From the NCBI RefSeq assembly GCF_056712565.1, contig NZ_CM160072.1: a stretch of DNA of 64,000 bases; one strand, given 5' to 3'. This document shows positions 42,521 through 43,060 of the stretch, piece after piece; the stretch's first letter is position 1; each line of letters opens with the position of its first letter. Under the pieces are notes generated by a model. The model searched no databases. It was given only the letters and a program-made list of their open reading frames with translations, and was not told where the DNA came from. A program made the position numbers and the translations under genes.

Positions 42521-43060
42521 CAATAATGCCGGAGGTTAATGTTAATGAATCACTGGCGTAGTTAACTGGACGTCCATTTGTTTGCTATGAATAGCAATTA
42601 ATGTTGGCACAACTATTCATATGGTTGATGTGATTTCGGTTTTTATATTAAATATCAATTTAATATAATCTGAAAATAAAACATCTTTTCGCATGTAGAG
42701 AAACATGTCGATATGATAGCGCAGTGCAGATCATGTTATCAGGGCTGGGCGGTAGCGTATTTAATCAGGGAAAGATTACGTAACACTGCTTTTTTGTACT
42801 GGACGATTCTCATTTTATGTTTAAAAATTGAGATACTCCTTATTTCCTGAAACTGTTTTTCATTGCTTATACATGATCAAATACTCCTTACATAATTAAG
42901 GAGAACAAAATGAAACTTAATACACGCCAACAATTTGTATTACTTAAATAGACCAGTGAAGGTACGTATCAGAATATCCGGTGAAGTGATTAATATTTCG
43001 TTGAATATTTCTCCGGATTTTTGAAACCTGCTGCTGTAGAAATTCTGAACAGGAGGAATT

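Follow-up and report, generated by a model that had tools for sequence, protein, structure and literature searches.

The window, a 64,000-nt stretch of DNA read on one strand, holds between 42521 and 43060 a spacer that separates yncG, which is split and annotated as frameshifted, from a type VI secretion module. The first gene of the module, at 43061..43345 (+), is annotated by RefSeq in an identical locus as "type VI secretion system PAAR protein"; it is preceded by a Shine–Dalgarno sequence (SD), AGGAGG, at 43051..43056 (+) and, judging by its CFT073 orthologue, would be the first of an RfaH-dependent unit. The ORF of vgrG (RefSeq: "type VI secretion system Vgr family protein") follows at 43364..45769 (+). 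The spacer is AT-rich, with a GC content of 0.295–0.385 per 200-nt window and 0.335 overall, and the ORF list has no frame of at least 60 aa within it on either strand. K-12 has yncH at this position and the window does not, because K-12 homology ends at the stop codon of yncG (42518). The part just past yncG (42521..42721, +; GC 0.295–0.34) has no K-12 counterpart and is present in ~850 of 5426 complete E. coli genomes, and megablast of the whole 42521-43060 region recovered it in full in about 686-687 of these, from several lineages. A candidate leader promoter that could feed the downstream ops site lies at 42642..42669 (+): from a consensus scan only, it is the best sigma70-like site (TTTATA-16 nt-TATAAT, 10/12 matches), and the region has five sigma70-like sites against 3.0 ± 1.6 in shuffles.

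The original prediction had described in this AT-rich, ORF-free spacer a hairpin that sequesters a ribosome binding site, followed by a mini-ORF, and had suggested a leader peptide or translational control element. The features themselves were read correctly, as were the split yncG and the K-12 yncH. The hairpin is a perfect 7-bp stem (ctcctta, 42884-42890; loop cataat, 42891-42896; taaggag, 42897-42903), its 3′ arm contains a consensus SD, and an ATG (42910-42912) sits 6 nt past the stem, after the spacer aacaaa, about where it had been placed. The frame that opens there, ATG AAA CTT AAT ACA CGC CAA CAA TTT GTA TTA CTT AAA TAG, occupies 42910..42951 (+), ends with the TAG at 42949-42951 and encodes the 13-codon product MKLNTRQQFVLLK. 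The motif tactcctta, noted as occurring twice, is part of a 10-nt direct repeat, ATACTCCTTA, at 42833-42842 and 42881-42890.

Folding predicts the hairpin as both the minimum free energy and the centroid structure in a 91-nt context (z −2.33), and again in a 45-nt context (z −4.13) and in a 400-nt leader context; it is modest in strength, at only −8.0 kcal/mol in the 45-nt context. None of 2000 dinucleotide shuffles of the region produced a perfect 7-bp hairpin that carries an SD in the 3′ arm and is followed by an ATG after 4–10 nt, while the 10-nt direct repeat arose in 5.5% of 2000, which is marginal. The upstream copy of ATACTCCTTA (42833..42842, +) is a second anti-SD-like sequence that can pair with the SD too. 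A reading of the hairpin as a minus-strand terminator was rejected, since it has a weak T-run and falls on a GATC motif conserved in the family of insertion sequences (IS) described below.

The sequence around the hairpin is that of an IS. Positions 42766..42920 (+, 155 bp) correspond to the left end of ISEc1, the H-repeat, a member of the ISAs1 family, and comprise its left inverted repeat (IRL), leader, hairpin, SD, transposase ATG and 11 nt of CDS. Identity to the left end of intact ISEc1 is 91.7% over 157 nt (blastn). In intact copies (ydcC of SK1144 and K-12; ISEc1 in SJ7), the match begins 146 nt before the transposase ATG and reaches 11 nt into the CDS. The window agrees with the IS from the terminus CAGGGAAAGAT... 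onward, past the hairpin and the SD as far as ATG·AAACTTAA, and then diverges; the intact copies go on as ATGGAACTTAAAAAATTGATGGAA, encoding MELKKLMEH.... The window IRL, CAGGGAAAGATTACGTAAC (42766-42784), starts with CAGGG and agrees with both the IRL and the right inverted repeat (IRR) of intact copies. The left inverted repeat of ISEc1 reads CAGGGAAAGATCACGTAAC and the right one CAGGGCAAGATTACGAAAG, and the IRL CAGGGAAAGATyACG agrees with the IRR CAGGGCAAGATTACG. The hairpin arms CTCCTTA/TAAGGAG are 100% conserved among intact ISEc1 copies. These copies read ATATTCCTTA where the window has its upstream ATACTCCTTA, so the exact identity of the 10-mer repeat is lineage-specific.

The sub-segment at ~42764-42920 matches 5340 of the 5426 E. 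coli genomes, with a median of 4 copies in each, and these matches sit under or beside genes annotated "ISAs1 family transposase". In the window, the homology ends at 42920 with neither an intact transposase ORF (~378 aa) nor an adjacent IRR. On sequence grounds, then, 42766-42920 is an IS remnant and not an element. It is like the H-repeat/ISEc1 copies of K-12 (ydcC, yhhI, ybfD) in terminal repeat, leader, hairpin, SD and start codon, at ~92% nucleotide identity, and it accompanies a vgrG/Rhs-type locus here as in K-12; it is unlike them in keeping 155 bp of a ~1.3-kb element, without transposase or right end, and in carrying no RefSeq feature. The H-repeat has long been known to accompany Rhs elements.

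A second, degenerate H-repeat fragment lies at 47385..47627 (+), where an IS left end (47385-47462, 81%) is joined to an internal transposase piece (47466-47627, 90%). The two fragments flank the PAAR-vgrG-M35 module on both sides, and the CFT073 equivalent of the second is annotated as an incomplete ISAs1 family transposase. Other genomes carry other states of the locus: in MLI106K3, a full-length ISAs1-family gene stands at the same site as the first remnant, after the same 240 bp, and SW4848 has the locus without the IS, in the order yncG-yncH-JUMPstart-vgrG-RHS. The IS flank of SK1144 ydcC resembles the 5′ half of JUMPstart; we take this likeness to be coincidental, since the flank corresponds to the region of the second fragment (47375-47396).

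The mini-ORF straddles the end of the remnant. Its first 11 nt (42910-42920) are the transposase start and the remaining 31 nt (42921-42951) are native to the module. The tail (ACACGCCAACAATTTGTATTACTTAAATAG...) recurs, from window position 42918 on, in strain XYEH3783, where it stands ahead of a second PAAR gene without the IS and follows sequence unrelated to the window. Because IS homology within the frame stops at 42920 and the tail recurs without the IS, the mini-ORF is an accidental chimera; judged by its two parts, MKLNTRQQFVLLK is a junction artefact of two unrelated sequences. A tblastn search with CFT073 c1886 gave no match to the tail, so that the gene from which the tail came was not identified by this search.

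Variation was compared among four leader variants (536, CFT073, FDAARGOS_1372 and S1-CAM-04-C). Variable columns make up 6.5% of the IS fragment and 6.5% of the upstream spacer, and this equality gives no sign of constraint on the fragment. The sole variant within the mini-ORF is K2E, nonsynonymous, which restores the IS consensus. The hairpin, the SD and the ATG are intact in all four variants, which is compatible with retention, but the absence of changes in these 29 nt is not significant at the local rate (estimated p about 0.15). Attenuators of the trp/pheST type likewise place a short ORF and then a terminator-like hairpin ahead of an operon. In the window, unlike in these systems, the ORF is a junction artefact, with neither an evident antiterminator pairing nor signs of constraint; what defines a leader-peptide attenuator, a small ORF under selection that is coupled to alternative RNA structures, was not found here.

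The hairpin proved to be a feature of the IS family. We retrieved 80 ISAs1-family loci with the YdcC protein from species-representative genomes (42–98% protein identity), from genera including Escherichia, Citrobacter, Cedecea, Erwinia, Vibrio, Photobacterium, Aeromonas, Photorhabdus, Xenorhabdus, Shewanella, Rheinheimera, Alishewanella, Legionella and others. In nearly all loci, a conserved TGATC(A/T)nATAC motif is followed by a short hairpin that directly precedes the start codon. In a MAFFT alignment of 38 left ends, TGATC aligns and variable loop lengths throw the 3′ arms out of register. Since loop lengths vary, each sequence was folded individually in place of a column-wise count of covariation, comparing 57 non-redundant ISAs1 windows (−45..−1) with 85 neighbouring non-IS gene starts. 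The mean folding z was −1.73 for ISAs1 (n = 57) and −0.22 for the neighbouring starts (n = 85; Mann–Whitney p 7e-10). A hairpin of at least 6 bp ending no more than 16 nt from the start was present at 45 of 57 left ends, against 33 of 85 control starts (Fisher p 2.6e-6), by a definition lenient enough, with G-U pairs allowed, for those 33 controls to pass it too.

The left-end hairpins represent 41 distinct arm pairs, with GGAG, GGGAG or AGGAG in the majority of 3′ arms. The arms differ yet stay complementary, as in CTCCTTA/TAAGGAG, TATCTCCT/AGGAGATA, ATACTCTC/GAGAGTAT, ACTGGCTTT/GGAGCCAGT, AGGAAAC/GTTTCCT, GGGAAAT/ATTTCCC and TCAAGCA/TGCTTGA; the loop sequence is not conserved across the family. 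Because pairing has been kept with so many different arms, we infer that the ISAs1 hairpin most probably restrains transposase translation by sequestering the SD. By inspection of the family alignment, TTGAC(C/G) and TGTGATCnnATAC are conserved upstream of the hairpin, with a spacing and a −10 quality that are unconvincing for a conserved sigma70 promoter.

RBS-sequestering structures are known from the transposase mRNAs of IS10 and IS50. In the "fold-back inhibition" of IS10, only read-through transcripts initiated beyond the element contain the inhibitory arm. The ISAs1 stem-loop would be comparable to these devices: it is short, buries the transposase SD just upstream of the start and keeps its complementarity across the family. 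It differs from the device of IS10, whose inhibitory arm is confined to read-through transcripts, in that it may either discriminate between transcripts or damp translation constitutively. A literature search found neither a published description of the ISAs1 hairpin nor TSS or reporter results for elements of the family, and in the ribosome-profiling papers that name ybfD or yhhI these genes appear only as excluded paralogs. The anti-SD hairpin is thus a conserved, family-wide and apparently undescribed feature of ISAs1 elements.

Just upstream of the remnant lies a JUMPstart element (42722..42759, +). In an Rfam scan of the leader it was the sole match, no family matching the hairpin or the mini-ORF: RF01707 aligns over its full model (1-38), the two conserved blocks (CAGUGCA ... 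GGGCGGUAGCGU) being in place and the variable 18-nt middle counting as an insertion, but its 19.8 bits (E 0.026 on 151 nt) stay under the gathering score of 35. The element forms a nearly invariant 36-nt island in five loci (536, CFT073, MLI106K3, SW4848 and K-12) whose flanks are otherwise unalignable, and K-12 retains it upstream of the rhsE pseudogene. Its 3′ part is the ops site, GGCGGTAGCGTA, on the non-template strand at 42748..42759 (+), which agrees with the consensus GGCGGTAGnnTG at 11 of 12 positions, lies 313 nt upstream of the PAAR ATG (43061 − 42748) and ends 6 bp before the IS remnant begins; by its CFT073 orthologue, it would be an RfaH loading site. JUMPstart/ops is a documented acting element, and the original prediction had overlooked it.

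The CFT073 leader, ~94% identical to that of the window, carries the same 12-mer at the same spacing (GGCGGTAGCGTA at 1715753-1715764, −313 from the PAAR gene c1882; Hustmyer et al. 2022, PMC9765446, Data set S2A), of which the window site is the direct orthologue, identical in sequence and distance. The CFT073 site was counted among eight bona fide RfaH sites, and ChIP-seq found RfaH bound there only in an hns stpA double mutant, the only background in which a sigma70 peak appears upstream of c1882 (PMC9765446). H-NS was bound at c1880 (adjacent), c1884-c1886 and c1889, and c1882-c1889, silent in wild-type rich-medium cultures, was called a cryptic RfaH-regulated locus, silenced by H-NS/StpA (PMC9765446). 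For this leader, Data set S2A gives the transcription start site (TSS) as NA, the supplement holds no TSS or sigma70 coordinate, and the IS remnant goes unmentioned in the paper (PMC9765446). A related case is the EAEC sci1 type VI secretion system (T6SS), which is under RfaH/ops control according to a preprint (10.1101/2025.02.08.637259).

The fallback reading in the original prediction, that the region is simply a promoter and an H-NS-silenced stretch, agrees with this published ChIP-seq on the orthologous leader (PMC9765446), and the AT-richness of the window leader is consistent with the H-NS/StpA binding seen in CFT073. By transfer from that strain, control of the leader would consist of ops/RfaH counteracting H-NS, and we infer that 536 behaves alike. 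As in the RfaH leaders of rfa, rfb, hly, kps and CFT073 c1882-c1889, the window combines a non-template-strand ops 12-mer within a 5′ leader, a conserved CAGYGCA block 18 nt upstream of it and an AT-rich setting that, from CFT073, would be H-NS-bound. It departs from them in the last base of ops (A, not G), in an Rfam score below the gathering threshold, and in a leader that is lengthened by the IS remnant and carries a terminator-like hairpin.

That second hairpin lies in the 140 bp between the remnant and PAAR (42921..43060, +), which are native to the module and align with the CFT073 c1886-c1887 inter-module spacer. Hairpin 2 (42961..43032, +) is long and imperfect, with a core at 42969-43024 in which CCGG 42978-42981 pairs with CCGG 43013-43016, and a T-run at 43018-43022. 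Its predicted energy is −25.9 kcal/mol (z −4.10, 0/200 shuffles), although a simple terminator scan did not flag it. The homologous CFT073 spacer holds a textbook terminator, with a 9-bp GC-containing stem (GGUAAGGUG/CACCUUACC) followed by U7. The one natural stem variant of hairpin 2 breaks a pair and is uncompensated; no compensatory variation was seen. Hairpin 2 would thus be an inherited inter-module terminator that RfaH-modified polymerase passes.

We consider it highly probable that the hairpin, the SD and the mini-ORF are the fossil left end of an ISEc1 inside an H-NS-silenced, RfaH-controlled leader whose control resides elsewhere than in the hairpin. An ISEc1 would have lodged 6 bp downstream of ops in the leader of a vgrG/Rhs locus and would later have been cut 11 nt into its transposase gene, leaving a remnant that now abuts the native upstream sequence of the PAAR-vgrG module. 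In intact elements, pairing of the anti-SD with the transposase SD would hold translation down; in the window, the hairpin and the chimeric ORF would be transcribed merely as part of a ~390-nt leader, and the remnant would have acquired no role. H-NS and StpA would silence the AT-rich promoter region. A polymerase that does initiate would gain RfaH at ops (42748-42759), and RfaH would take it past the remnant and past the terminator-like hairpin at 42961-43032 into PAAR-vgrG. Of the original proposal, this keeps the hairpin, which is real and very probably serves translational control, but not its role as a device of PAAR-vgrG, since the hairpin, SD and ATG are the initiation region of the ISEc1 transposase, the ORF is chimeric and variation is not reduced.

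Such a dedicated device (for example, one in which the SD hairpin gates the mini-ORF and its translation in turn influences whether hairpin 2 forms) seems to us highly improbable. The geometry would suit it, as 9 nt separate the stop codon (42949-42951) from hairpin 2, and 17 nt from its core, so that a ribosome terminating there could touch the base of the outer stem; the mini-ORF is intact in the four leader variants, and in the second, IS-free context the tail again has an in-frame ATG ahead of it, giving MKEEWGITRQQFVLLK. Yet the start, SD and hairpin are IS sequence, identical in hundreds of intact ISEc1 copies, and loci exist with a full-length IS or with none at the same position. The unreduced variation of the fragment, a sole coding change that is nonsynonymous and reverts to the IS consensus, and the uncompensated pair-breaking variant in hairpin 2 also speak against it. 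That the hairpin is a meaningless accident of AT-rich DNA has practically no probability left: short perfect inverted repeats are indeed common in the region, such as an 11-bp AT-only palindrome at 42643-42668, but the shuffles never yielded an SD-type hairpin followed by an ATG, and this reading is refuted by the family comparison, in which the hairpin is conserved in intact ISEc1 and replaced by other complementary arms across ISAs1 elements of many genera.

Alternatively, the remnant may have been kept because it helps the leader, either as a promoter or as a strong SD that gives RfaH-bound polymerase an early coupled ribosome against Rho over the 313-nt untranslated stretch. A promoter-like TATACA-17-CATAAT does occur at 42868-42896, where the hairpin loop would supply the −10. 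The arrangement has been kept in ~687 genomes of several lineages, and the leader is long compared with most RfaH operons, in which ops lies 40–190 nt from the first gene, hly excepted (PMC9765446). Against this, the promoter-like match is 9/12 in a region whose match rate is near that of shuffles, the loop that would hold the −10 is not conserved in the IS family, the fragment varies as its flanking spacer does, and RfaH suppresses Rho unaided, over ~630 nt at hly (PMC9765446). With nothing in its favour beyond persistence, we regard such an exaptation as improbable; the fossil left end without a role is the reading that we retain.

At several independent loci, we also observed an ISAs1 left end at a very short distance from ops and in the same orientation as the operon. 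At the 536/CFT073 locus, the ISEc1 remnant begins 6 nt after ops; in MLI106K3, a different ISAs1 member begins 1 nt after it; and in a metagenomic O-antigen cluster of the order galF-JUMPstart-IS remnant-wzx, found twice (L097 and L144), an ISEc1-like remnant begins 7 nt after it. Oceanimonas (L031) has GGCGGTAG, then TG, then the end of an ISAs1 member, and in Cedecea (L017) a canonical JUMPstart is followed after ~50 nt by a degenerate remnant and a full copy. Across the 80 loci, ops 12-mers, with one mismatch allowed, were found upstream and co-oriented five times, against 0.3 expected, and 1, 0 and 0 times in the other strand and side combinations. A metagenome scan for ops followed by an ISAs1 end gave 76 matches, of which 75 could be scored (one, L103, could not be re-matched); 73 of these 75 are conserved coding motifs such as GGSIQGEI, and the one true junction locus is the O-antigen cluster (L097 and L144). 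A literature search returned no description of adjacency between H-repeats and JUMPstart, and one paper notes H-repeat remnants in Salmonella O-antigen clusters.

The name ops stands for operon polarity suppressor. Tolerance is the simplest explanation of this proximity: insertions behind ops are tolerated because ops suppresses polarity and the operon survives. It is also conceivable, although we think it unlikely, that ISAs1 elements preferentially land or survive a few bp downstream of ops/JUMPstart in the orientation of the operon, where they would be transcribed by RfaH-modified polymerase and the hairpin would gate the transposase from read-through. The route of such targeting may be the ops-paused transcription complex, or the CAGGG of JUMPstart just 5′ of ops, which may mimic an IS end.

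For the window, what looked like a riboregulator and a leader peptide ahead of a T6SS PAAR-vgrG module is most probably an unannotated 155-bp IS remnant, and the element that would govern the leader, ops/RfaH against H-NS, is found a few bases upstream of this remnant and has already been described for CFT073. If targeting were true, the window would offer a single, decayed instance of a general association between IS and antiterminator sites; targeting, rather than tolerance, would link an IS family to antitermination sites and would help to explain the presence of H-repeats in O-antigen and Rhs loci. For the ISAs1 family, the hairpin offers a testable handle on how these poorly studied elements may limit the synthesis of their transposase.

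Co-oriented left ends of ISAs1-family elements lie downstream of ops, the RfaH loading site within JUMPstart, in at least four independent loci, at a distance of 1–8 nt and once of about 50 nt. Besides the window (42748–42770), the arrangement is present in the MLI106K3 locus (L005, 4220–4250), in a metagenomic O-antigen cluster (L097, 4001–4031, and also L144), in Oceanimonas (L031, 2398–2420) and in Cedecea (L017, 2074–2200). The gene order in the O-antigen cluster is galF–JUMPstart–IS remnant–wzx, and at the yncG locus the ops-adjacent ends belong to two different IS family members. 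Five co-oriented ops 12-mers were observed upstream of the 80 ISAs1-family loci, against 0.3 expected. In E. coli K-12 the same JUMPstart/ops (GGCGGTAGCGTA; L004 2578–2614, i.e., NC_000913.3 about 1527577–1527613) survives some 280 bp ahead of the rhsE pseudogene, although K-12 has lost the vgrG gene that comes after this element in, for example, SW4848.

An 11-bp perfect AT-only palindrome (TTATATTAAAT / ATTTAATATAA; window 42643–42668) overlaps the hexamers that most resemble a promoter in the leader. Further downstream, a strong terminator-like hairpin (42961–43032; −25.9 kcal/mol, z −4.1) with a T-run at 43018–43022 separates the stop codon of the mini-ORF from the PAAR Shine–Dalgarno sequence; its homologue in the c1886–c1887 spacer of CFT073 is a textbook terminator. 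This hairpin may make PAAR-vgrG expression dependent on RfaH read-through.

A second degenerate H-repeat fragment, in which an IS left end is joined to an internal segment of the transposase, is located downstream of the PAAR-vgrG-M35-hypothetical module (window 47385–47627), and the module is thus bracketed on both sides by directly oriented H-repeat left-end pieces. SK1144 carries one intact ISEc1 in place of the whole bracketed interval, which is consistent with recombination between H-repeat copies of this kind. Inside the module, the M35-peptidase ORF (window 45723–46520) ends 30 nt before the end of the RefSeq CDS when the latter is mapped over from FDAARGOS_536, whose locus is otherwise identical (L003 7239–8030); this suggests a small indel, or differing coordinates, in the stretch after vgrG. 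In E. coli XYEH3783, a 33.7-kb record deposited as a "plasmid" (L090; NZ_CP110997.1) consists in its entirety of chromosomal yncL-ansP-PAAR/vgrG-narZ sequence with two PAAR-vgrG modules; the record probably arose through misassembly or misclassification.

Directly 5′ of the anti-SD hairpin, a TGTGATC(N3)ATAC motif (region at window 42871–42884) is conserved across the ISAs1 family, about 20–45 nt upstream of the transposase ATG in L008–L087, the 80 family loci. Most terminal inverted repeats of the family also contain an internal GATC (CAGGGnnAGATC). These features suggest that Dam methylation may act as a control here, as it does in IS10 and IS50.
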